Assembly (NCBI GenBank): GCA_002792735.1
Contig: PFOW01000055.1
Location: 273 to 64,272, forward strand
Reading direction: 5' to 3'
Origin: a bacterium CG_4_10_14_0_2_um_filter_33_32
GTDB lineage: Bacteria; Patescibacteriota; CPR2_A; CG2-30-33-46
DNA: 64,000 nt
Under the pieces are notes generated by a model that did not search any database, was not told where the DNA came from, and saw only the letters and a program-made list of their open reading frames with translations. Below are positions 16,165-36,262 of this stretch, in pieces. Made by a program: the position numbers and the translations under genes. The stretch's first letter is position 1, and every line of letters starts with the position of its first letter.

Positions 16165-16192
16165 TATGAAAACCCCGATCAATATCGGGGTT
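16165..16192 (-). terminator. intrinsic terminator downstream of the major pilin gene
   Basis: 9-bp perfect stem AACCCCGAT/ATCGGGGTT with a 4-nt loop. On the minus sense it is followed by UUUUCAU. Confidence 0.55.
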
Positions 16193-16219
16193 TAAATTCA
16201 GTTTAAGCTATAATGTAGA

Positions 16220-24760: not shown

Positions 24761-24788
24761 CGTCATTCCCGCGCAAGCGGGAATCCAG
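24761..24788. repeat. left inverted repeat / hairpin flanking the GIY-YIG gene
   Basis: CGTCATTCCCGCGCAAGCGGGAATCCAG has an 8-bp stem ATTCCCGC/GCGGGAAT with a GCAA loop. Confidence 0.7.
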
Positions 24789-26056: not shown

Positions 26057-29000
26057 TTATGGCGAATAAGTATATGTTAATGTAAGCTTTGCTCCCCAAA
26101 GAGATACATCACCACCATTTCCAACGATGTTAAGATGATAAGCATCTGTTGCCGGATATGTTCCACTATCATTTATAATCCCATAAAAATAAGAAGTAGC
26201 ATCATAATAAGTCTTAAGATAAGAATTGTTTCCAGTGCTTAGATTAAATACTTTTTGATTTGCACTATCTATATCAGTTGTTATTACTAAGGGGTTTGCA
26301 GTTCCTGAAACGCCAGTGATTTCGAAAAAGGCTGATTTAATGGTCGGGTTGCCTTCTGGTATATAGATATTAAATGCAAACCCGCCCGGTACGCCGTTCC
26401 CGCTTGTTCTAGTGTCTGTATCTTGTCCAATAAATAACTCTACTGTTTTTAACGGCCTAGTTGCCAAAGTTACAAAAGAACCATTTTCAGCACAATGTGT
26501 TGGACTATCAACGCTGTTACCACAAATTGCTTCATTTCCTGCCTTATCGATTGCTTTTACTCTGAAATAATATGTTGTTGAGGGTGACAAACCTGTTATA
26601 GTAACAGCTTGCGCCCCAACGCTATAACCACTAGTTGGGTTAGGCTGCAAGGTTCCAGGCCAACTACCTGTTGTATTGTATTCTACTTGTTTTGTAGCGT
26701 CTTCATTAACACTCCAATTAATAGTTGCGGAAACATCAGAAACACCGGATGTAGAAATACCGGTTATAGTAGGAGCTACTGTATCACAATAAAAGTCTTT
26801 GGAATTTACAGGATCACCGCCAAAATTAACCCATGCGCTATCGCCGTTTGCGTTTTTAACTCTAATCCGCCAATGATATTCATTACCATTGACTACCGTA
26901 GCCTGCACCCAGCCATCAACTGTAGTTTTTGGTGTAGGATAACTCACTGACGAACCTAGAATAAGACCATTACCATCAAAAGGAACTCCGTTAGGCTTAA
27001 GCTCAACTTCTGGCGTTAAATTTCCTGCTACCGCAGAATACATATCTGTGTGAAACCAAATATTGGTCTGGTTAATTCCAGATTCAGGTGATAAAGCTGC
27101 GCCACCTTGAGTTTTAGATTGAATAAGATCAGATGGATCAGCCGGAACATTGCTTAAAATAGTAAACCCATTTGATAAAGTACCAACACCCGCTTGGTTC
27201 TTAACATTTACACTATACTGACCTGTTGGCTTACCAGAAAGATTAACCACACATCTTATCTGTATTGCGCTATCCTCATATACTGTATCAGCATTGATCT
27301 GGGTGGGACCTGATAAATAACACTTTGGACTAGATAAATTTACAAAATTATCTCCTGTAATAGTTAGTTGCAAAGCTGTGTCATTTTGTGTTCCTTCTGC
27401 TGGATCTACTCCAGTTACGGTTGGGACAGATGCTGTTATAAAGAAACCAGATGTGCTACCGTCACCCCATTCTGCAACATAACCTTCTGGATTAGTAACA
27501 GTTAATTTCCAATAGCCTATTGTTTTATACACAATATTATAAGCAGCTGACATTGATGTTGCCGATGAAACAGTTATATCGCCATTTGCAGCTACAATAT
27601 CTGACTGACCGGTTTTCACTAACCTTGAATCTGTACTAGCTGTTTTTGGCTGGAAACCTTTACCTGTTATAGTCACCGTAACAGGATTGCTATTTTCAGC
27701 AGTATTAGGATTAATGCCTGTTATTTTTGGTTTAATATCAAAACGAGTATGTGACGCATCTAAGTTGCTTGTTTTACTGTTGGCTGTTACCTGAATTCTG
27801 GCAGCATAATTCACAGGACCACTAGAAGCACCGCTTGGTATATATACCCCTATCTGATTTTCTGCCCAACCATTAAAATCGCCATTTGGGGTTAATAATG
27901 GATTGCCATTAAAATCATTAAACTTAATATTATAAGAAGCAGACGATCTATTCCCAGCTCCTGGATCAGGCCTAAAATGATCACCATCAATAGCTACTAA
28001 GGTTCCGCCTCCAGCGAATCCGCCGGCAACCCCTGTTGTACATCCACTACCACTGCATGTAAATCCTGTTACTCTAGGTAAATAATCAAAAGAATAATTA
28101 TTACTGTTGACTGAATCACTATGCCTTCTTGCGATCAAAGAAACTGAATAACCTGGATCATTTGGCGCTGTTGTTTCAATGGTAGTTGTTAACCAACTTC
28201 CTATTGATGCAACAGTTGATCCAAACATAATTCTGCTGTTTGCTCCTTGTGTACCAAAATGATTACCGTTAATCCTTAAAGTATCCTCATATCTAGCGCC
28301 AGTTACTCCATTCTCAACAGTAATACCATAACCGGATGCTGTAACATCAACTGAAGTTATTTTAGGTAAACAAGTAAAAGACCAATTATTAGTATTTTTA
28401 TCTGGTGCAGGATTTGTTCTTGTAACAACAATGTTGCCAGCCTCATTACCGTCAGGTATAACAGGAACTGCAACGTTTGTAATTTGAGTTCCGCCGGATG
28501 CTCCATAAGATCCGTTTATAGTTGCCGATTCTCCATTTATTACTACACTTCCATTACTGCCAAAATGATCTCCTATTATAGTAATAATATCGCCTTGATA
28601 CGAAGAATTTTGAGTTACGGCATTATTCAAGCTTGTTATTCTTGGAAGTATTAATAGGGTTTTATCATTATTAGATGTTTTAGTATCATTCCTAGTCACA
28701 ACAATCGCGACTGTAATGCCTGAATCATTTGGTAAAGCAAATGATATTGAAGTGGCTCCCCATGTCAAACCGGCTGTAACATCAGTGGTGCCTACAGTAA
28801 CTTTTCCTCCACCTTGAACAGCGCCGAAATGATCACCGGAAATTGTTATAGAATCCCCTACACGTGCTTCTGAAGTTACGGATGTAACCTTAGGAAGAAT
28901 TATCAAAGTGTAATTATTATTACTTGTTTTTGCATCATCTCTAGTAACAACAACTGCCACAGTAATACCCGAATCATTAGGTAAATTTAAAGAAACAGAA

Positions 29001-32000
29001 GTAGTAGACCACGTTAGACCAGAGCTTACATCAGTTGTGCCTATTGTAACTTTACCTGCCCCCTGGGTGGCGCCAAAGTGATTTCCTGAAATTGTTATAG
29101 AATCTCCTACGCGCGCTTCTGAATTTACAGAAGTAATCTGTGGTAAAATCAAAATTGTTTTATCGGTATTTGATGTTTTAGTATCATCCCTGGTTACTTT
29201 AACAGCAACCGTATAACCTGCATCATTTTGGATTTTAACTTGGATAGAATTAGCTCCCCACGATACATAATCACCAGAAGGAACATCAGTTGTGCCAAAG
29301 GTAACTTTACCTGTACCACGAACGGCACCAAAGTGATTACCTGTTAATGTGATCGTATCACCTACCCTTCCTTCTGTTACACTTATACTGGAAAGTTGAG
29401 GAAGAATAAGTAACGTCACATCATTATTACTTGTTTTTAAATCACTATGTCTTGTTGCAACAACTGCTACAGTTGTTCCTGAATCATTGGGAACAGTGGC
29501 AGTAATAGAAGTTTCTGACCATGTACCAATAGTGCCGTCTGTAGAACCGAAAGTTATTTTACTACTAGCACCCTGATTGCCAAAATGATCTCCGGATACT
29601 GTTACAGAACCGCCTACACGAGATTCAGAAGTAACAGAAGTGACTCTTGGTAAAATTAACATTGTCTTATCATTATTAGAATCTTTTAAATCACTATGCC
29701 GTCTTGCAACAACAGCTACGGTATAACTAGGATCATTAGGAACAGTAGCAGTTATAGACCCTTCATTCCAAGTACCTATACCTGCAACAGTAGAGCCTAC
29801 CGTTACCTGGCTTGAAGCACCCTGAGTGCCAAAGTGGTCTCCGGTTAAAGTAATAGTACCTCCTACGCGAGCCTCAGCAGTAACACTGGCAATTCGAGGC
29901 AAAAGGAGAATACTCTTGTCAGTGTTGGATGATTTAGTATCATCTCTGGTTACTTTCACTGCTACCGTATAACCAGAGTCATTTTGAACTTTTACTTGTA
30001 TAGAAGAATCGCCCCAAGAAACATGATCTCCTGCAGGCGCATTAGTTGAACCAAAAGTTACATAACCTGCACCACGAACTGCGCCAAAATGATTTCCAGA
30101 AATAGTTATAGTATCACCAACTCTAGCTTCTGTTACGGATATGCCGGTAACTTGAGGCATAATACTTACGGTTTTATCATTATTAGAAGTTTTTAAGTCT
30201 CCATCTCTTGTTGTTACAACAGCTATTGTTCCGCCTGAATCATTGGGAACTTTTACCTGAAGAGAATTATCTCCCCAAGATACATAATCGCCTCCTGCAA
30301 CATCAGTTGTCCCCATAGTTACTTTTCCATTAGTTCCTTTAGCTGCGCCAAAGTGATTACCTGCAATAGTTACAGTATCACCAACTAGAACATCAGTTGG
30401 AACAATAGACGTTATCTGGGGAAGTATAAGTATCGTTTTATCTGTATTAGATATCTTTGTATCATCCCTGGTTACTTTAATAGCTAGATTGTAAGAAGAA
30501 TCATTTTGAATTTTAACTTGAATAGTTCCGGCATTCCAAGATACATAATCGCCGGATGGAGCAATTATAGAACCAAAAGTAACCGTACCTGCGCCCCGCA
30601 CTGCGCCAAAGTGATTTCCGTTAACTGTAATAGTATCACCCACCCTTCCTTCAGTCTGAGTAATAGAAGTGATTTGGGGCAAAATAGTAAATGTTATATT
30701 GTTATTTGAGGTATCACCACCATTTCTAGTTACTTGAACAGCAACTGTTGTAGCAGCATCATTCGGTACTGTAACTGTTATTGAAGTATCTCCCCATAAG
30801 GTTACTGGTGCTGAAGTTGAGCCGAGCATAACGCTTCCTGTTCCTTGGACTCCCCCAAAATGATCTCCCTGAATAGTAAGCAAATCACCCACCCTGCCTT
30901 CTGTAGGCGATAGTGAAGTGGTAACTCTTGGCAAAATCTTAAAAGCATAACTGTTTGAAGTTTTGGAATCAGAAGACCTTGTTACAACAAAATTTAAAGA
31001 CTGTCCAGAACTTATGGTAGCCGGAATAGTAAAGTTTGAGATCGAAGTATCAGCATAAGTAACCCCCGTAGATGAATTCTGTCCATCTAGTGTTATTGCC
31101 CCGGCAGGACCAAAGTGATCGCCGTTTATAACAACAACATCTCCAATTCTAGCACCTGTGCCTGTTACCGGATTAGTTGAAGTAATCCTTGGCAATATCT
31201 TAAACGTGATACCGTTTGATGTTTTAGTGCCATAAGTCGCATTAGTGGTTATAGTTACTGACCCATCTATTGTTCCAGTAAGAGGTATTGCAACTCCTGT
31301 TATTGAAGTATCGCCCCATGTTCCAGTGGCTGACGCGCCGTTTATGGAGATTGTTCCGGCAGATACACCTAAATGATTACCGTTAATTGTAATAGTATCA
31401 CCCACTCTTGCTTCTGTTACTGACAGAGAAGTGATCTGCGGCAAAACAGTAAAACCATAAACCGGCGAATTTTGAACTGCCCCAACCGTAATAGACATCC
31501 CGCCGGTATTTATAGTGGCATCAGAAGGAACCGATACTCCAGAGATTGAAGTGTTTGTCCAAGTAACACCAGGGGTAGATTCAGTAATTGCAGTTCCGTT
31601 ATTATTAATGTAAAGGGTTCCTGCTGTTCCAAAACCATATCCGGAAATTGTTATAGTTGCTCCCTGAAGAGCCTCTGTTGGTGTTGGCGCAATGATTTTA
31701 GGCCGCACAGTAAATGAACTTGCATAAGTAATTGCTGTTGCTCCAAATATAGCGTCTGTAATTGTTAAATTAACATTCCAGACTCCCCCGTAAGCAGCTG
31801 TTGGACCAGGCGTTGCATTATTTAAATTAAATGAACCGCCAGTAATGCTATTTTTATTAGATAAAGAAAAACTAGATCCCGTAACTGTTTGAGTGCCTAA
31901 AGTTAAGGTTACAGAAGAAACAGATTGGAAACCTGATCCGGTTAATGAAATACCTGAATATGTTGACCCTGAATCTCCGCTTGTAGTTGAAATTGCCGTA

Positions 32001-33271
32001 ACTTTTGGCAAAATTTGGAAGTTTTGGTTATTATTGGAAGTTTTGGTTATGGGAGCTGTTATTGAGACGATAACTGTTCCAGAAATTGTATCCGGCACTG
32101 TAAAGGTAACTGAAGTTTCAGTGCTGCCTCCTCCAATTGTTGCTGATACTCCATTAATTGTCATAGTCCTTGTTGTGCCTAAATGATCTCCTGTGATTGT
32201 GGCTGTAACATCCCCCACTGTTTTACCAGCACCAACCCCTGTTATATTTGGATAAACATAAAAAGTCAGAAGCGAGGTATCTGCTACACCTCCAGCCGTT
32301 ACTAAAAGACCATTATTAGTTACACCACCATAAGACATACAAGCAGCCGGTATAGTAAAAACAATTTGTGTATCACTCCAAGAACTTATATCTGCATCCG
32401 GTATTTGATACCCACCAGAACCTCCGATTTTTATATTATCAGTAACCGTTGATCGATTTCCTGCCCCAGGATCAGCACCAAAACCAGTTCCTGTAATTGT
32501 TATTTGCTGTAAGGAACGACCTCCGTCGGTTATTGTCCCATCAGTATTATTTGTAAAAGATGTTGCATCTGGATTAGCAACTGCCAAAGTATAATCAATA
32601 GCAAAAACAAGGGTATCCATTCTTACTTCGGTTGATGCAGAATTGTTATTCCCAGAATTAACATCAGAGCGCATCCTTATAGTTACGTTTATATTAGAAG
32701 CCTGATAAGCAGAACTTACTGTTTTTGCTCCATCAACATCTCTAGTAACCCAAGAACTTGAAGTCGGATCAAATTCTGTTTCTAAGTCAACTAAGCCATC
32801 AAACACACCTGTTGTATCGACACCATCATAAATTTTCAGGCCTACTGATTGAGTTGATGCATGTGTTTCTTGAAAAAGCTTAACATCAAAGCTTCCATTA
32901 ACATTATTTACAGTAGCACCTGCGGGTACTCCCATATCTTCCCATGTAAGAGTCTTTTTAAAATAACCTAAATTCTTTTTATTCCTAGCAGTAACTTTAG
33001 CAAAAAGAGAACCAGAAGGATTACCGTCTGTTCCTAAATAGCCTTGTGTACAAGTACCCGTACATGATTCATCAACATAAGTAAAACCTTCGATGCTAGT
33101 AGCAAAGTTAACCGTATAATTTTGAACTGCTGCACGAACAGGTGTTACTGATTGTCTAAACAAAAATGGTACAAAAAAAGAACCTAAAAATCCAAAAATA
33201 ATTAATAAAATCGATATTTTGGTAAAATATCTTAAAAAATGCTTTTTATTTTTCTTTATAAACAAAACCAT
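26057..33271 (-). CDS. giant (2404 aa) secreted/cell-surface protein with ~19 tandem IPT/TIG-like Ig-fold repeats, an FN3 domain and a distinct C-terminal domain
   Basis: N-terminal signal-anchor. The repeated ~85-aa unit is ILPQITSI…EGRVGDTITxNGNHFGAxRGxGxVTFG…VKVxNDxxxxVAVKVTRDDTKxSN. It has FN3-like INWSVNE…YYFRVKAIDKAGNE. It is a single uninterrupted ORF. Confidence 0.85.
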   Translation of the reverse strand: MVLFIKKNKKHFLRYFTKISILLIIFGFLGSFFVPFLFRQSVTPVRAAVQNYTVNFATSIEGFTYVDESCTGTCTQGYLGTDGNPSGSLFAKVTARNKKNLGYFKKTLTWEDMGVPAGATVNNVNGSFDVKLFQETHASTQSVGLKIYDGVDTTGVFDGLVDLETEFDPTSSSWVTRDVDGAKTVSSAYQASNINVTIRMRSDVNSGNNNSASTEVRMDTLVFAIDYTLAVANPDATSFTNNTDGTITDGGRSLQQITITGTGFGADPGAGNRSTVTDNIKIGGSGGYQIPDADISSWSDTQIVFTIPAACMSYGGVTNNGLLVTAGGVADTSLLTFYVYPNITGVGAGKTVGDVTATITGDHLGTTRTMTINGVSATIGGGSTETSVTFTVPDTISGTVIVSITAPITKTSNNNQNFQILPKVTAISTTSGDSGSTYSGISLTGSGFQSVSSVTLTLGTQTVTGSSFSLSNKNSITGGSFNLNNATPGPTAAYGGVWNVNLTITDAIFGATAITYASSFTVRPKIIAPTPTEALQGATITISGYGFGTAGTLYINNNGTAITESTPGVTWTNTSISGVSVPSDATINTGGMSITVGAVQNSPVYGFTVLPQITSLSVTEARVGDTITINGNHLGVSAGTISINGASATGTWGDTSITGVAIPLTGTIDGSVTITTNATYGTKTSNGITFKILPRITSTNPVTGTGARIGDVVVINGDHFGPAGAITLDGQNSSTGVTYADTSISNFTIPATISSGQSLNFVVTRSSDSKTSNSYAFKILPRVTTSLSPTEGRVGDLLTIQGDHFGGVQGTGSVMLGSTSAPVTLWGDTSITVTVPNDAATTVAVQVTRNGGDTSNNNITFTILPQITSITQTEGRVGDTITVNGNHFGAVRGAGTVTFGSIIAPSGDYVSWNAGTIQVKIQNDSSYNLAIKVTRDDTKISNTDKTILILPQITSIVPTDVLVGDTVTIAGNHFGAAKGTNGKVTMGTTDVAGGDYVSWGDNSLQVKVPNDSGGTIAVVTTRDGDLKTSNNDKTVSIMPQVTGISVTEARVGDTITISGNHFGAVRGAGYVTFGSTNAPAGDHVSWGDSSIQVKVQNDSGYTVAVKVTRDDTKSSNTDKSILLLPRIASVTAEARVGGTITLTGDHFGTQGASSQVTVGSTVAGIGTWNEGSITATVPNDPSYTVAVVARRHSDLKDSNNDKTMLILPRVTSVTSESRVGGSVTVSGDHFGNQGASSKITFGSTDGTIGTWSETSITATVPNDSGTTVAVVATRHSDLKTSNNDVTLLILPQLSSISVTEGRVGDTITLTGNHFGAVRGTGKVTFGTTDVPSGDYVSWGANSIQVKIQNDAGYTVAVKVTRDDTKTSNTDKTILILPQITSVNSEARVGDSITISGNHFGATQGAGKVTIGTTDVSSGLTWSTTSVSLNLPNDSGITVAVVVTRDDAKTSNNNYTLIILPKVTSVTSEARVGDSITISGDHFGAVQGGGKVTVGTTDVTAGLTWGATSISFALPNDSGITVAIVVTRNDTKTSNNDKTLLILPRITSLNNAVTQNSSYQGDIITIIGDHFGSNGSVVINGESATINGSYGASGGTQITNVAVPVIPDGNEAGNIVVTRTNPAPDKNTNNWSFTCLPKITSVDVTASGYGITVENGVTGARYEDTLRINGNHFGTQGANSRIMFGSTVASIGSWLTTTIETTAPNDPGYSVSLIARRHSDSVNSNNYSFDYLPRVTGFTCSGSGCTTGVAGGFAGGGTLVAIDGDHFRPDPGAGNRSSASYNIKFNDFNGNPLLTPNGDFNGWAENQIGVYIPSGASSGPVNYAARIQVTANSKTSNLDASHTRFDIKPKITGINPNTAENSNPVTVTITGKGFQPKTASTDSRLVKTGQSDIVAANGDITVSSATSMSAAYNIVYKTIGYWKLTVTNPEGYVAEWGDGSTSGFFITASVPTVTGVDPAEGTQNDTALQLTITGDNFVNLSSPKCYLSGPTQINADTVYEDSAIQIRCVVNLSGKPTGQYSVNVKNQAGVGTLSNGFTILSNVPADPSDLIQSKTQGGAALSPESGINQTNIWFHTDMYSAVAGNLTPEVELKPNGVPFDGNGLILGSSVSYPTPKTTVDGWVQATVVNGNEYHWRIRVKNANGDSAWVNFGGDPVNSKDFYCDTVAPTITGISTSGVSDVSATINWSVNEDATKQVEYNTTGSWPGTLQPNPTSGYSVGAQAVTITGLSPSTTYYFRVKAIDKAGNEAICGNSVDSPTHCAENGSFVTLATRPLKTVELFIGQDTDTRTSGNGVPGGFAFNIYIPEGNPTIKSAFFEITGVSGTANPLVITTDIDSANQKVFNLSTGNNSYLKTYYDATSYFYGIINDSGTYPATDAYHLNIVGNGGDVSLWGAKLTLTYTYSP

Positions 33272-33335: not shown

Positions 33336-33968
33336 TCATTTTTCTGCATTGACGGTCATACCGCCTTTATTATAGGAAATTGTCCAGAGCCATTTTTTTG
33401 CGTTGGAATCAAAACTTAAATCCATTGATTCAATTTTAAAATCTTTTTTCTCGCCAACTACAGACTCCACGCTTTTGTATACTTCCGCACTGTTTTTCCA
33501 CTCACCTTTTAACATATCTTTTATTATTGGCTTATCTTCTTCAGCTGATCTTATTTCGCCGTCTTTTACATAAATTTCATATGATTTGTCTTTATTCTTA
33601 GAATAAAACGTTAAGCCCCAGCCGGTTGCTTTCCCTTCCTTATTCACTTCACTTACCTTAGATGTAATTCTTTGGAGTTCTGCATCGGCAGACCAGACAC
33701 GTGCCTTTGTAAAGGATAAATCATATGCTTCCTTGGCTGTTGAGTCTGGGGTTATTTTTGTGAGACGGTTTTCAACCGAGTTTTTCCCTGATCTAAAACC
33801 CGAATAAAAACCAATAGTACAAGAAATAATCAAAACAATAATTAATGCAAAAATTGAAAATATATTAAATTTTGAAGTAATAATCTGTATATAGTCCGTT
33901 TTTACCATACCAGAATCTTTTTGTACTAAGTCTATTTTTTTACTTCTTCTAATTTTAATATCTTCCAT
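33336..33968 (-). CDS. membrane-anchored hypothetical protein (tandem paralog A)
   Basis: 210 aa with an N-terminal TM helix and an extracytoplasmic domain: WGLTFYSKNKDKSYEIYVKDGEI…KKWLWTISYNKGGMTVNAEK. Confidence 0.55.
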   Translation of the reverse strand: MEDIKIRRSKKIDLVQKDSGMVKTDYIQIITSKFNIFSIFALIIVLIISCTIGFYSGFRSGKNSVENRLTKITPDSTAKEAYDLSFTKARVWSADAELQRITSKVSEVNKEGKATGWGLTFYSKNKDKSYEIYVKDGEIRSAEEDKPIIKDMLKGEWKNSAEVYKSVESVVGEKKDFKIESMDLSFDSNAKKWLWTISYNKGGMTVNAEK

Positions 33969-33969
33969 C

Positions 33970-34572
33970 TTATTTCTCCGCTATTACGGTTATATTTCCT
34001 TTTTTATAATTTACAGACCAAATCCATTTATGTTCGTTTTTGAAATAACTAAGATTCAGATCTTTTATATCAGGTGATTCATCCCCTGAAGAATTTAAAA
34101 CTCTTTCTAAAACTATGGGAGAATCTAGCCATGCTCCCTTTAAAGTGTCAGTAACCGCTAGAGCGATACCTTGCGAACTTGCAATATTGCCGTCTTTAAT
34201 CAAAACCTTATATCCGCTTTTTGATTTTACTGAATAAAAAGCCATTTCCCAGCTTGAGGATTTACCGTCATTATCAACACTTGGGGCAATAAGCCTAATT
34301 GAAGCTAAGCCGGCATCATCCTGCCAAGCCTTTGCCTTTACCATGGCTACTTTATAAGCTTCATTGGCCGTTAAAAGAGTATCCGAGATATCAAATATTT
34401 TTTTTACGTCACCTTGGCCTTTTTGCAAACCGAAACTATAACCGGCTAATAATCCGGAAGTAATGCCCAAGAAAACAATGGCAACCGTATAAATTATCAG
34501 CACTTTTTTGTTAATAGAAAAAGCCTTGTCTTGGTTATTTAAACCCTGATTTTGATTATTTTTAGTTACCAC
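33970..34572 (-). CDS. membrane-anchored hypothetical protein (tandem paralog B)
   Basis: 200 aa with the same architecture as 33336..33968: WEMAFYSVKSKSGYKVLIKDGNI…HKWIWSVNYKKGNITVIAEK. Confidence 0.55.
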   Translation of the reverse strand: MVTKNNQNQGLNNQDKAFSINKKVLIIYTVAIVFLGITSGLLAGYSFGLQKGQGDVKKIFDISDTLLTANEAYKVAMVKAKAWQDDAGLASIRLIAPSVDNDGKSSSWEMAFYSVKSKSGYKVLIKDGNIASSQGIALAVTDTLKGAWLDSPIVLERVLNSSGDESPDIKDLNLSYFKNEHKWIWSVNYKKGNITVIAEK

Positions 34573-34662
34573 CTGCCGCCCTATTTTATCTTTATTATTA
34601 TACCACGATTATTGCTTTACAAGCAATAATAATAATCCAATAAACCCACCCCCACTCAATCC

Positions 34663-34700
34663 CACCCCAGGGGTGGACACGTTTACCACCCCTGGGGTGG
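34663..34700. repeat. REP-like palindrome upstream of the Y1 transposase gene
   Basis: CCACCCCAGGGGTGG-acacgttta-CCACCCCTGGGGTGG, 15-nt inverted arms. Confidence 0.7.
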
Positions 34701-34737
34701 GATTGACGAAACACGCTACTTGCACTATTCTAAGAAT

Positions 34738-35406
34738 ATGCCGCGTAGAAAAACCATCTTTATAAATAACGGGATTTATCATGTTCTAAATAAAGGCGTA
34801 AATAGCGCACCTATATTTTTGAATAATAATGACCATCAAAGATTCTTAGATATAGTCAATCTATGTAGATATAATCCCCAAATAAAATTTTCACTATATA
34901 ATCGTCTACATAAACAAGAAAAAAACGAATTTTTGGATAATTTAAAAAAGAAACACGAACCTATTATAGATATTTTAGCTTTTAGCCTAATGCCTAATCA
35001 CTTTCATCTCTTATTAAAACAACTCCAAGACAAAGGTATACAGATTTTTTTAGGAAACCTTCAAAATAGCTATGCCAAGTATTTTAATATAAAAAATAAA
35101 AGAACAGGACCTCTTTTCCAATCTGCTTTTAAATCAATAGATATAGAAACAGACGAACAACTTATCCATGTCTCAAGATATATACACTTAAACCCTGTAT
35201 CCTCTTACATAATAGATATTGAAAACTTAGAAAATTACAAATGGTCTTCTTTCGGCAATTATTTAAATGATAAAAAATATGAGTTCGTAGCCTCTGCAAC
35301 AATTCTAGGATACTTCAAGACGCAGAGTAAATACAGAAAATTTGTCTTTGACCAAGCTGATTACCAAAGAGAACTAGAAGAAATAAAACACTTAGCAATA
35401 GAATAA
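34738..35406 (+). CDS. IS200/IS605-family Y1 (HuH) transposase, REP-associated (RAYT-like)
   Basis: MPRRKTIFINNGIYHVLNKGVN…, HuH motif MPNHFHLLL and catalytic-Tyr region SRYIHLNPV. The ORF track extends it to a TTG at 34720, but the ATG at 34738 is more likely. Confidence 0.7.
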   Translation: MPRRKTIFINNGIYHVLNKGVNSAPIFLNNNDHQRFLDIVNLCRYNPQIKFSLYNRLHKQEKNEFLDNLKKKHEPIIDILAFSLMPNHFHLLLKQLQDKGIQIFLGNLQNSYAKYFNIKNKRTGPLFQSAFKSIDIETDEQLIHVSRYIHLNPVSSYIIDIENLENYKWSSFGNYLNDKKYEFVASATILGYFKTQSKYRKFVFDQADYQRELEEIKHLAIE

Positions 35407-35421
35407 ACGTTATACCGTGTA

Positions 35422-35458
35422 CACCCCAGGGGTGAACACGTTCACCACCCCTGGGGTG
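35422..35458. repeat. REP-like palindrome downstream of the Y1 transposase gene
   Basis: CACCCCAGGGGTGAACacGTTCACCACCCCTGGGGTG is a near-perfect 37-nt hairpin in the same orientation as the left copy. Confidence 0.7.
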
Positions 35459-35461
35459 GAA

Positions 35462-36262
35462 TTATATATTGAAAAGTTTTTTAGCGTTTTTGGTGGTTAT
35501 GTTAGCTACTTCCTCAAAAGAAATATTTTTGATACTGGCTATTTCTTTTGCTATCTCTTTTACATAAATCGGCTCATTTCTTTGCCCCCGACATGCCTGA
35601 GGCGCTAAAAACGGTGCATCTGTTTCAATCAGAATTTTATCCAACGGAATTTTTTTTACTACTTTTTGTAGATCATCAGTTTTAGAATAAGTAATAATGC
35701 CTGTAAACCCTATATAAAATCCTAACTCAATTACTTTTTGGGCAAATTTTAAGCTTCCGGTAAAACAGTGAACTACCCCTTTTTTAGATAATTTTTTACT
35801 GTATTCCGTTAATATTGCAGCAGTCTCTTTGTCTGCTTCACGAGAATGAATTATTACAGGTAAATCAACGCTACAAGCAAAACTCAAAAATGACTTAAAA
35901 ATTTCTTGAGCCTTATTTCTGTTTTCTTTAGTATCAGGATTTATTCCGGTTCTAAAATAATAATTGTCCAAGCCTATTTCTCCAATAGCTGCTACCTTTG
36001 GATTATCGGCTAAGGTTTCAAATTTTTTGACTTCTTCTTGAATGTTTTCTATCTCAGTTAAATGATCCGGATGAAAACCAATTGCCGCATAAACCCCCTT
36101 AAATTTTTCTGCAATATTTAAAGCTTCTTTAGAATTATCAAATCTAGAACCAATATTAATTATTGCTTCGATCTCGTTTTGAAAGCTCTTTTCTATTACA
36201 TCCGAATAATCTTTCTTGAATGCCTCAAAATTAAGATGCGCATGTGTGTCGATAAATTTCAT
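35462..36262 (-). CDS. tatD: TatD family metal-dependent DNase/hydrolase
   Basis: MKFIDTHAHLNFEAF…, GEIGLD and the conserved His/Asp/Glu pattern of TatD. Confidence 0.85.
   Translation of the reverse strand: MKFIDTHAHLNFEAFKKDYSDVIEKSFQNEIEAIINIGSRFDNSKEALNIAEKFKGVYAAIGFHPDHLTEIENIQEEVKKFETLADNPKVAAIGEIGLDNYYFRTGINPDTKENRNKAQEIFKSFLSFACSVDLPVIIHSREADKETAAILTEYSKKLSKKGVVHCFTGSLKFAQKVIELGFYIGFTGIITYSKTDDLQKVVKKIPLDKILIETDAPFLAPQACRGQRNEPIYVKEIAKEIASIKNISFEEVANITTKNAKKLFNI

Follow-up and report, generated by a model that had tools for sequence, protein, structure and literature searches.

The window, that is, the whole 64-kb stretch of DNA that was analyzed, contains an intact gene for a Y1 HUH ssDNA endonuclease/transposase that is bracketed by two hairpin repeats (Table 1). 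The neighbours of this gene encode a 200-aa membrane protein and TatD, no tnpB gene lies beside it, and the downstream repeat falls between the convergent stop codons of the transposase gene (35404-35406) and tatD (35462-35464).

Table 1. Features of the transposase locus, in positions of the window.
Feature	Position	Strand	Remark
Degenerate extra half-site AAACCCACCCCCA	34642..34654	.	just outside the left hairpin
Left REPIN-like doublet TCAATCC-CACCCCAGGGGTG-GACACGTTTAC-CACCCCTGGGGTG-GGATTGA	34656..34706	.	perfect hairpin, 21-bp arms, 9-nt loop
Sigma-70-like promoter TTGACG-17-TATTCT (predicted)	34703..34731	+	-35 box overlaps the 3' arm of the left hairpin
Y1 HUH ssDNA endonuclease/transposase gene, 222 aa, intact	34738..35406	+	COX95_03450, PIR67531.1
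Right REPIN-like doublet CCGTGTA-CACCCCAGGGGTG-AACACGTTCAC-CACCCCTGGGGTG-GA	35414..35460	.	13-bp perfect arms, 11-nt loop
Whole cassette repeat-gene-repeat, ~0.82 kb	34642..35460	+	absent from the collinear L101 interval

The first-pass annotation had recognized an IS200-like HuH Y1 transposase from the strings HFHLL and RYIHLNPV, and the identification as a Y1 HUH protein is borne out by the motifs and by a Pfam match to Y1_Tnp (PF01797) at 33.8 bits, which is above the gathering threshold of 23. The open reading frame encodes MPNHFHLLL, with the HUH motif, and SRYIHLNPV, with the Tyr motif. In protein numbering, NHFH occupies residues 87-90 (H88 and H90), followed by L126-F127-Q128 (FQ at 127-128), by Tyr148 in Y148-I-H-L-N152-P153 and by W169-S170-S171. 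Across an alignment of 38 homologues H88, H90, Y148 and N152 are invariant, with P153 conserved at 90% or above. The Tyr motif of the protein has the form Y-x3-NP, which characterizes class 2 TnpA-Y1 proteins, whereas Y-x3-Q is that of IS200 (Quentin et al., 2018; PMC6006769). REP_Tyr_transpos (NF047646) is the sole NCBIfam match, at 46.4 bits, and does not reach the equivalog cut-off of 80. A Pfam search at E <= 0.1 returned Y1_Tnp only, and no distal C-terminal domain of the Bac_DnaA_C, HTH_23 or HTH_28 type was detected in it. Judged by its motifs and predicted fold, the enzyme is a RAYT-like, class 2 member of the Y1 HUH superfamily. Its motif set (NHFH, FQ, YIHLNP and the WSS tail) fits TnpA-Y1 subclass 2.1, which is the same as RAYT Group 1 of Bertels et al. 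(2017; PMC5581495) and TIRYT of Di Nocera et al. (2013; PMC3733652), and does not fit the RAYT groups of E. coli and Pseudomonas; this placement comes from motifs (Table 1 of PMC6006769) and not from a tree with reference sequences.

Searches of the PDB by sequence alone gave weak matches (ISDra2 TnpA at E 5e-4 with a profile, and 4ER8 at E 0.16), so a fold comparison was needed. The AF2 model of the 222-aa protein has a pLDDT of 92.5, and its best PDB match by Foldseek is 4ER8_A (E 2e-6, TM 0.69), the structure of E. coli TnpA_REP bound to a REP hairpin. The TnpA proteins of ISDra2 and IS608 rank behind it (TM ~0.6), and the best 25 matches are TnpA_REP, IS608, ISDra2 or IS200 transposases throughout. 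A TnpA_REP-like fold is therefore predicted with confidence, and the C-terminal tail (residues 155-222) is helical in the model.

Both flanking repeats are doublets built from the palindrome CACCCCWGGGGTG. The exact core occurs four times in the 64 kb, always at the transposase gene; when up to two mismatches are allowed, five matches are found against 0.24 expected, and none of 100 shuffles reaches five. Beyond the two flanks, no doublet copy was found anywhere in the window. At the centre of the left hairpin stand CCACCCCAGGGGTGG (34662-34676) and CCACCCCTGGGGTGG (34686-34700), and each 13-mer core within the left doublet is itself palindromic. Folded as DNA, the left hairpin gives -28.4 kcal/mol (z = -9) and the 37-nt right hairpin (35422-35458) gives -17.2 kcal/mol (z = -3.8). 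GC-rich palindromes on both sides, with a 37-nt hairpin on the right sharing the core of the left, had been proposed in the first-pass annotation and are indeed present: the two flanks form a 42-nt direct repeat of 93% identity in a window of 29-40% GC. The positions first assigned are those of the cores; the left hairpin as a whole is longer (Table 1). The repeats also contain motifs resembling GGGGWSAS (GGGGTGAA and GGGGTGGA, each at 7/8 positions). The feet of the hairpins read TCAATCC|CACCCC and GTGTA|CACCCC; 5' of the stem, a GT[AG]G tag is missing. An asymmetry of G-T versus A-C pairing, which would indicate one active strand, was looked for in the hairpins and none was seen. A search of the hairpin against Rfam returned only sub-threshold look-alikes of microRNA precursors.

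Copies of the palindrome elsewhere in the genome, on which the REP interpretation of the first-pass annotation depended, exist as at least two doublets that lack the transposase gene. One (L096) sits in the gap separating dgk from thyA; the products of these two genes match PIR67184.1 and PIR67183.1 of the source metagenome-assembled genome (MAG; bacterium CG_4_10_14_0_2_um_filter_33_32) at 100% identity. The other (L102-L105) lies 180 nt downstream of the gene for a protein identical to COX95_01745 of the same MAG. Both are intergenic, with no RAYT gene within 5-10 kb on either side. As these contigs carry proteins identical to those of the source MAG, the source genome has at least four doublet copies, a lower bound in which L096 and L102 are assigned through identical proteins and not through one assembled chromosome. 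The four copies have both cores and an 11-nt spacer length in common, and their outer arms vary yet stay complementary (TCAATCC/GGATTGA versus AGAATCC/GGATTCT). The lead-in CCCCACT(A/C)AAT(T)CCC is shared by the left flank of the gene (34642-34654) and the gene-less L096 copy. The exact transposase protein was found at the same single locus with the same neighbours in 10/10 places listed (23 contigs read; NCBI, JGI and ENA), unlike multi-copy IS200, and the cassette is invariant across the 10 assemblies, with no insertion or excision polymorphism seen among them. A classical IS200 is ruled out by the Tyr motif, by the length of the protein and by the number of gene copies in these places.

A search for homologues of the transposase found 5,181; of the 120 best matches, those that carry a name belong to Patescibacteria. 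Nine other homologue loci were examined, each with its own inner flanking palindrome, and from one lineage to the next this palindrome and the gene change in step. Conserved outer arms are common to most loci of the closest clade (L001, L004, L007, L055 and L097-L100), in which gene-proximal inverted arms (TTGACAC-N4-GGGA ... TCCC-N4-GTGTCAA) are also seen. These gene-proximal arms are degenerate in the window and could not be discerned in the distant loci L030, L082, L087 and L089. A clostridial locus (L027) has the same 13-mer doublets beside a 42%-identical homologue; Group 1 also occurs in Clostridia. Gene-less doublets are present on other contigs of Curtissbacteria (MFCA01, n=10), Patescibacteria (JBMNVW01, n=6), Gottesmanbacteria (JACREK01, n=4) and Roizmanbacteria (LBQC01, n=3). 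The four Gottesmanbacteria copies are identical over 43 nt and lie with conserved flanks on separate contigs, which indicates recent copying. Some of the Curtissbacteria copies fall inside ORFs, and the Curtissbacteria copies carry GGGGTGAG, an exact fit to GGGGWSAS. The core was also found in genomes of other CPR bacteria, Clostridium, Omnitrophota and Planctomycetes in a scan of species representatives, among which the source genome is not included. In metagenome contigs the doublet scan gave seven stretches; it missed contigs that bear the pattern (e.g., Ga0210016_1000082), so the collection is a subsample and its counts are lower bounds.

Upstream of the transposase gene, the -10 box of the putative promoter ends 6 nt ahead of the ATG, so that the mRNA is predicted to be leaderless. 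The same promoter layout was recognized by eye in seven of the eight other loci of the closest clade (L001, L004, L007 and L097-L100), and is poor in L055.

The explanation that we favour, with a probability of about 0.7, is a cassette of the REPtron/TIRtron type: a class 2 Y1 HUH gene kept at a single locus and bracketed by cognate hairpin doublets of CACCCCWGGGGTG. In its favour are the complete catalytic motifs and the TnpA_REP-like predicted fold, the gene-less doublets elsewhere in the genome, the presence or absence of the entire cassette between syntenic genomes, and the lineage-specific palindromes beside every Patescibacteria homologue examined. By analogy with the TnpA proteins of IS608 and ISDra2 and with E. 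coli TnpA_REP, the enzyme would bind the hairpin when it is extruded on ssDNA (e.g., the lagging-strand template) and would cut next to it through Tyr148 with an HUH-bound metal, after which the ends would be rejoined. The same analogy suggests that gene-less doublets may occasionally be excised and reinserted in trans at a low rate. More speculatively, since the upstream doublet overlaps the gene's own -35 box, binding of the enzyme there would allow it to repress its own expression. A literature search found no mention of RAYT/REPIN together with Patescibacteria/CPR and nothing relevant on the 13-mer. Systems of this kind are known, but none had been described in this phylum or for this enzyme subclass.

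The alternative that survives best, although unlikely, is an autonomous insertion sequence (IS) of the IS200/IS605 type, in which the hairpins would be the left and right ends, the 0.82-kb unit would move as a whole, and the gene-less doublets would be solo ends or MITE-like derivatives. In the related genome L101, the gene order 264aa-tatD-200aa-210aa-giant protein is kept at 44-67% amino acid identity, and the interval between tatD and the 200-aa gene is a 55-nt AT-rich spacer without the transposase gene or the palindrome. This empty site in a syntenic relative shows that the ~0.82-kb cassette is an indel, which speaks for an IS. The occurrence of homologues in different neighbourhoods in different genomes likewise favours an IS, although the partial synteny of L097 and L099 (NTP_transferase, RtcB, CAP) suggests vertical inheritance. 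In being direct repeats, the flanks resemble top-strand LE/RE, but the same symmetric doublet stands at both ends instead of a distinct LE and RE. Even though few RAYT groups are as IS-like as Group 1 (Bertels et al., 2017; PMC5581495), the Tyr motif is that of class 2 and not of IS200 (PMC6006769), the protein has 222 aa with a C-terminal tail compared with a core of ~150 aa, and tnpB does not adjoin the gene. Finally, every place listed has one locus; a second copy or a near-identical paralogue was not found among the homologues listed, the next relative being 61-62% identical.

Less probable still is a domesticated host protein whose hairpins serve as regulatory or structural sites (operator, bidirectional terminator or mRNA stabilizer), with extra copies that are functional and not transposed. 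The upstream hairpin does adjoin or overlap the -35 box in the window and at all eight loci of the closest clade, and the downstream hairpin is terminator-like between its convergent stops; conversely, the genes on either side of the L096 copy share a strand, and ORFs contain some of the Curtissbacteria copies. Domestication would also suit an intact, single-copy gene that is conserved across more than 5,000 relatives, and the literature gives no function for Group 1/subclass 2.1. Against domestication stand the identical Gottesmanbacteria copies, with their sign of recent copying, the co-variation of the inner palindrome with the gene between lineages, and the behaviour of the cassette as an indel. 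A CRISPR array or a terminator-only role was also considered and ruled out, as the repeats stand on both sides of the gene, vary with it from lineage to lineage and include an upstream copy that terminates nothing. Coincidental palindromes or a chimeric join are next to inconceivable, for the sole point in their favour is the low copy number within the window, and chance is ruled out by the core statistics (four exact cores versus ~0 expected) and by the identical cassette in 10 independent assemblies (NCBI, JGI and ENA), with the architecture recurring at the other homologue loci examined.

Some observations also weigh against the cassette of REPtron/TIRtron type, namely the lack of polymorphism in the 10 assemblies, the low copy number, the missing GT[AG]G tag, the sub-cut-off REP_Tyr_transpos score, the lack of strand asymmetry in the hairpins, and the report of subclass 2.1 as REP-less (PMC6006769).

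RAYT/REPIN systems are the best-studied mobile DNA persisting by vertical inheritance and are known mainly from Proteobacteria. That an ultra-small CPR genome has an intact enzyme along with cognate hairpins at dispersed sites indicates that streamlined, episymbiotic-type genomes keep such replicators too. Subclass 2.1/Group 1/TIRYT, the largest and least understood group of these enzymes, gains a concrete, short and testable candidate DNA substrate, and the Crystal Geyser time series, with many assemblies of the same organism, would allow repeat gain and loss to be followed directly. A wider reading is put forward tentatively: the enzyme may belong to a Patescibacteria-wide, mostly single-copy branch of subclass 2.1 (more than 5,000 members) that co-evolves with nested hairpins, in which conserved outer arms (ATCCC-n-AGGTGTC-n-ACCTA / TAGGTTGACAC-n-GGGAT) would surround a lineage-specific GC-rich inner palindrome and the upstream repeat would act as promoter/operator of a leaderless mRNA. 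If this wider reading is true, a persistent, self-regulated symbiosis similar to RAYT/REPIN would exist in the most streamlined bacterial genomes, the 'REP-less' Group 1/subclass 2.1 enzymes would have hairpin substrates after all, and the GGGGTG motif, which is shared with Clostridia, Omnitrophota and Planctomycetes, would be their ancestral recognition element.

Compared with known systems, the cassette shares with IS200/IS605 elements (IS608 and ISDra2; subclass 1.1) the HUH/Y1 fold, an indel of the size of the cassette and hairpins flanking the gene on either side. It differs from them in having Y-x3-NP in place of Y-x3-Q, a protein that is 70 aa longer and the same symmetric doublet at both ends, and in being neither multi-copy nor accompanied by tnpB. 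E. coli TnpA_REP (RayT/YafM, 4ER8) with REP/BIME is the best structural match and also has Y-x3-NP; however, the two proteins are 14% identical in sequence, F stands in place of the conserved W, and the enzyme of the window carries ~55 additional helical residues inserted between strands 1 and 2, and its tail is longer. As in the E. coli TnpA_REP and Pseudomonas RAYT-REPIN systems (subclasses 2.2/2.5, Groups 2/3), a single-copy gene lies between cognate inverted doublets (REPINs), gene-less intergenic copies occur elsewhere, and the repeat sequence is lineage-specific. In contrast to canonical RAYT systems, the NF047646 score is 46 bits (<80), the repeats are without a 5' GT[AG]G tag, and doublet copies number at least 4 versus tens to hundreds (typically 57-140). 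The first-pass annotation had seen here the canonical REP-associated tyrosine transposase arrangement. Its RAYT/REP affiliation largely holds, given Y-x3-NP, 4ER8 as best fold match, REP_Tyr_transpos as sole NCBIfam match and the gene's own hairpin flanks. The word canonical does not, given a score of 46 bits under the 80-bit cut-off, the motif set of subclass 2.1, the missing tag and the low copy number, and because the cassette is also a whole-cassette indel with an empty site.

The closest counterpart by motifs is TnpA-Y1 subclass 2.1, described as not REP-associated (Quentin et al., 2018; PMC6006769) or as TIR-flanked, in TIRtrons (Di Nocera et al., 2013; PMC3733652). With this subclass the enzyme shares the HuH motif NH[YF]H (here NHFH), FQ replacing the conserved W, Y[IV]HLNP (here YIHLNP), an SS-containing tail (here WSS) and a low gene copy number, at a length of 222 aa versus a median of 238, although, unlike subgroup 2.1.2, it has no distal C-terminal HTH domain detected by Pfam. 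No REP-like structures were seen with subclass 2.1 in the analysis of Quentin et al. (2018; PMC6006769), whereas strong hairpin flanks, nested in relatives, and gene-less copies are present here. The inverted sequences on the two flanks carry a motif of GGGG(T)(G)A type, which may correspond to the TIR consensus GGGGWSAS of TIRYTs, and 'moderately abundant' repeat families organized as dimers have been described with TIRYTs (Di Nocera et al., 2013; PMC3733652).

The enzyme is read from an intact gene (table below) and carries the HUH motif MPNHFHLLL and the motif SRYIHLNPV with the catalytic Tyr148, its catalytic residues being invariant among the homologues compared. It matches Pfam Y1_Tnp (PF01797; 33.8 bits, cut-off 23), and its sole NCBIfam match, REP_Tyr_transpos (NF047646), scores 46.4 bits and falls short of the 80-bit equivalog cut-off. 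Comparison with the PDB by sequence alone was weak. The best fold match of the AlphaFold2 model (pLDDT 92.5) is E. coli TnpA_REP with a bound REP hairpin (4ER8_A; E 2e-6, TM 0.69), with the TnpA proteins of ISDra2, IS608 and IS200 ranking below it (TM ~0.6).

On either side of the gene lies a doublet, a REPIN-like hairpin built from two 13-mer palindromic cores. Folded as DNA, the left hairpin reaches -28.4 kcal/mol (z = -9) and the right one -17.2 kcal/mol (z = -3.8); the two repeats form a 42-nt direct repeat with 93% identity, and 2 nt separate the end of the right one from the stop codon of tatD. The exact core occurs four times in the 64 kb, always at the enzyme gene, and allowing up to two mismatches gives five matches versus 0.24 expected. 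A scan of the 64-kb window, whose GC content is 29-40%, for GC-rich hairpins found nothing resembling the doublet beyond the enzyme gene. The ORF, domain score, flanking doublets, core counts and GC content thus confirm the hairpin-flanked Y1 transposase described in the first-pass annotation. Just two more perfect hairpins rich in GC lie in the window; they are unrelated to the doublet repeat and may be terminators.

Features of the window and of the other DNA stretches (L numbers)
Feature	Stretch	Position	Strand	Details
Y1 HUH transposase gene	window	34738-35406	+	intact ORF, 222 codons
Left doublet hairpin	window	34656-34706		perfect, 21-bp arms; TCAATCC-CACCCCAGGGGTG-GACACGTTTAC-CACCCCTGGGGTG-GGATTGA
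Right doublet hairpin	window	35422-35458		13-bp perfect arms; same doublet, downstream of gene
Predicted promoter	window	34703-34731		TTGACG-17-TATTCT; promoter scanner, run on window only
Repeat-gene-repeat cassette	window	~34642-35460
2404-aa protein	window	26057-33271	-	repeated TIG/fn3-like modules
210-aa protein	window	33336-33968	-	N-terminal hydrophobic stretch
200-aa protein	window	33970-34572	-	N-terminal hydrophobic stretch; adjacent paralogue of 210-aa protein
GC-rich hairpin	window	16170-16193		AAACCCCGATCAATATCGGGGTTT
GC-rich hairpin	window	24765-24784		ATTCCCGCGCAAGCGGGAAT
Gene-less doublet	L096			CCCCACTAATTCCCTC-CACCCCAGGGGTG-AACACGTTTCC-CACCCCTGGGGTG-GGC; spacer between two same-strand genes
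Gene-less doublet	L091/L092			GAATCC-CACCCCAGGGGTG-TACAAGTGTAC-CACCCCTGGGGTG-GGATTC
Type-IV-secretion-like genes	L102	3029-5607; 11849-15979		six T4SS_pilin genes, PrgI, TraC-like, AAA_10/TraG-like, around fourth doublet
Doublets inside MFCA01 ORFs	L013; L028; L043; L044; L078	222-255; 3503-3548; 745-782; 5315-5360; 658-703
Tannerella tandem arrays of 13-mer	L057; L070	13-235; 6759-6897		42-nt period

The enzyme and the adjacent 200-aa protein are identical to COX95_03450 (PIR67531.1) and COX95_03445 of the Crystal Geyser MAG CG_4_10_14_0_2_um_filter_33_32, the source genome, and both are also identical in the Crystal Geyser MAG 'bacterium CG2_30_33_46'. In public assemblies (23 contigs read; NCBI, JGI, ENA), the exact enzyme has the same neighbours in all ten places shown: the 2404-aa TIG/fn3 protein, the 210-aa and 200-aa proteins, the enzyme, tatD and a 264-aa protein. 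Gene and both flanks are identical base for base in these ten places, with no polymorphism of the cassette seen. Neither the 23 contigs nor the protein search showed a second location or a near-identical paralogue, the nearest relative after the exact matches having 61-62% identity. The GC content of the gene for the 2404-aa protein (0.38-0.40) is above that of its surroundings (~0.33).

Among 5.8 billion proteins, the 200-aa protein matches only itself and one relative (46% identity), encoded on L101. This stretch is collinear with the window across the 264-aa protein (44%), tatD (67%), the 200-aa (46%) and 210-aa (59%) proteins and the giant protein, represented there by a collinear homologue of at least 989 aa. 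Between tatD and the 200-aa gene, L101 has only 55 AT-rich bases, with neither enzyme gene nor palindrome. Gain or loss therefore affected the cassette as a whole, and it is an insertion relative to this syntenic relative.

The first-pass annotation had made further palindromes elsewhere in the genome a test of its reading, and two gene-less places carry them, with none elsewhere in the window. The species-representative genome collection does not include the source genome; both places come from a metagenome scan for the window-type doublet. The L096 copy lies between the genes for diacylglycerol kinase and thymidylate synthase, whose products match PIR67184.1 and PIR67183.1 of the source MAG at 100% identity. 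The L091/L092 copy recurs on four more contigs (L102-L105), where it follows the gene for the exact protein COX95_01745 at a distance of 180 nt and is embedded in a T4SS-pilin/PrgI/TraC/TraG-like cluster; as read on L102, this part of the CPR genome is a locus of the type-IV-secretion or conjugation-like kind. No transposase homologue lies within the 5-10 kb examined on each side of either copy. Together with the two flanks, these places give the source genome at least four doublets, a lower bound since some contigs on which the pattern is known to occur, Ga0210016_1000082 and Ga0210031_1000044 among them, were not returned by the scan; the metagenome collection is therefore a subsample and its low or negative counts are minima. 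Both cores and the 11-nt spacer are common to all four doublets, and the outer arms differ yet stay complementary (TCAATCC/GGATTGA versus AGAATCC/GGATTCT).

Scanning the genome collection for the 13-mer doublet revealed multi-contig families in CPR MAGs: ten doublets on seven contigs with one homologue gene in Curtissbacteria MFCA01; six on four contigs, all intergenic, two of them flanking the one gene, in Patescibacteria JBMNVW01; four identical 43-nt copies with conserved flanks in Gottesmanbacteria JACREK01; and three doublets in Roizmanbacteria LBQC01. The JACREK01 copies lie on short contigs of 2.5-7.7 kb (L014, L019, L036, L042), and this arrangement of identical sequences points to copying in the recent past and to assemblies broken by the repeat; their shared flanks include CCG(A/C)GGTGTC, resembling the outer arm of other lineages. 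About half of the MFCA01 doublets fall within ORFs that are 100 aa or longer, in some cases 370-965 aa. These may represent in-frame insertions into genes, comparable to the intragenic REPs that other bacteria are reported to carry. Several Clostridium species, Omnitrophota and Planctomycetes have the same doublets too, sometimes adjoining a homologue. The 13-mer also forms tandem arrays in Tannerella and, as back-to-back 14-nt units, in Omnitrophota (L009, L025, L066, L084), with no enzyme homologue beside them in 8-kb blocks.

The protein search returned 5,181 relatives; among the best 120, all those with a named source are Patescibacteria (Howlett-, Shapiro-, Davies- and Levybacteria). Nine homologue loci were read (L001, L004, L007, L030, L055, L097-L100) and three more briefly (L082, L087, L089). 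Every homologue gene inspected has a lineage-specific palindrome on both sides (CACATCGGATGTG; ACACACCSGGTGTGT; AAACACCGGGKGTTT; TCAACTCCGGGAGTTGA; CACCCCWGGGGTG), and the gene neighbourhoods vary, with partial synteny between L097 and L099. The CACCCCWGGGGTG core accompanies enzymes 37-47% identical to that of the window (L030, L055, L082, L087, L089; CPR, Omnitrophota, Planctomycetia) and, as a 13-mer, forms doublet families in several Clostridium species, whereas closer homologues (54-61%; L001, L004, L007, L097-L100) have other inner palindromes. This distribution points to an ancient recognition motif of the GGGGTG type that has changed locally time and again; the shared CACCCCWGGGGTG may be ancestral or convergent.

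In most loci of the closest clade (L001, L004, L007, L055 and L097-L100, counted together with the window, whose own gene-proximal arms are degenerate), the inner palindrome sits inside conserved outer arms, ATCCC-n-AGGTGTC-n-ACCTA ... TAGGTTGACAC-n-GGGAT, giving a nested hairpin of ~55-60 nt, and the gene-proximal arms are inverted repeats around the gene. The right arm of the upstream repeat provides a TTGACA -35 box. In the window and seven of the eight other loci, inspection by eye places a -10 box 16-17 nt further on, with its end 6-7 nt upstream of the ATG. A Shine-Dalgarno sequence is absent from these eight of the nine loci, the window included (in L055 the layout is poor). With the -10 box so close to the ATG, a conserved leaderless mRNA is therefore predicted, and the enzyme family appears to be expressed from it with the -35 box as part of the repeat. 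This family-wide architecture of nested hairpin and leaderless promoter is the most interesting lead.

The proposed mechanism starts from an intact enzyme bracketed by its cognate hairpins, from doublets without the gene, from a single locus and from a cassette-sized indel. By analogy with IS608 and ISDra2 TnpA and with TnpA_REP biochemistry, the enzyme would recognise the extruded hairpin on single-stranded DNA, cleave next to it through Tyr148 and an HUH-bound metal, and rejoin the ends; doublets would thereby be moved in trans at a low rate, and the cassette itself probably arrived through the same chemistry. Gene-less doublets exist both in the source genome and in relatives, and from lineage to lineage the inner palindrome changes along with the gene. 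Since the upstream doublet overlaps the -35 box, the enzyme may repress its own gene. An autonomous IS200-like element, which the empty site, direct-repeat ends and non-syntenic homologues favour, is unlikely given the single gene locus, the class-2 motif, the lack of tnpB and ends that are both identical and symmetric. That the protein is domesticated and its hairpins purely regulatory would fit the promoter overlap and a terminator-like position, but identical recent copies in Gottesmanbacteria and the cassette indel make it quite improbable. Chance or artefact is refuted.

The RAYT/REP reading of the first-pass annotation is thus essentially right, except that the type is not the canonical one, the repeat family is small and the cassette is an insertion. 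The Tyr motif separates class 2 TnpA-Y1 proteins, which are TnpA_REP-like (Y-x3-NP), from IS200 (Y-x3-Q) (Quentin et al., 2018, PMC6006769, Table 1). Subclass 2.1 corresponds to Bertels Group 1 and to the majority of the TIRYTs of Di Nocera; one variant of it combines NH[YF]H, FQ and Y[IV]HLNP with an SS motif in the tail and has a median of 238 aa (PMC6006769); the enzyme has NHFH, L-F-Q, YIHLNP, W-S-S and 222 aa. Judged by these motifs, it is of the Group 1/subclass 2.1/TIRYT type and not of the canonical GTAG-REP type. Subclass 2.1 is reported to have no association with REPs (Quentin, PMC6006769); TIRYT genes are reported to have TIRs on their flanks, some of which build moderately abundant families organised as dimers (Di Nocera, PMC3733652), and Group 1 flanking 16-mers occur on average 12 times per genome (Bertels, PMC5581495). 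The literature search found no paper describing such systems in CPR/Patescibacteria. Unlike canonical RAYT/REP repeats, those of the window lack the GT[AG]G tag. The suggested old GGGGTG-type motif recalls the GGGGWSAS consensus of TIRs at TIRYT genes (PMC3733652). With YIHLNP in place of the Y-x3-Q of IS200, the enzyme shares the class-2 motif of E. coli TnpA_REP, its closest fold.
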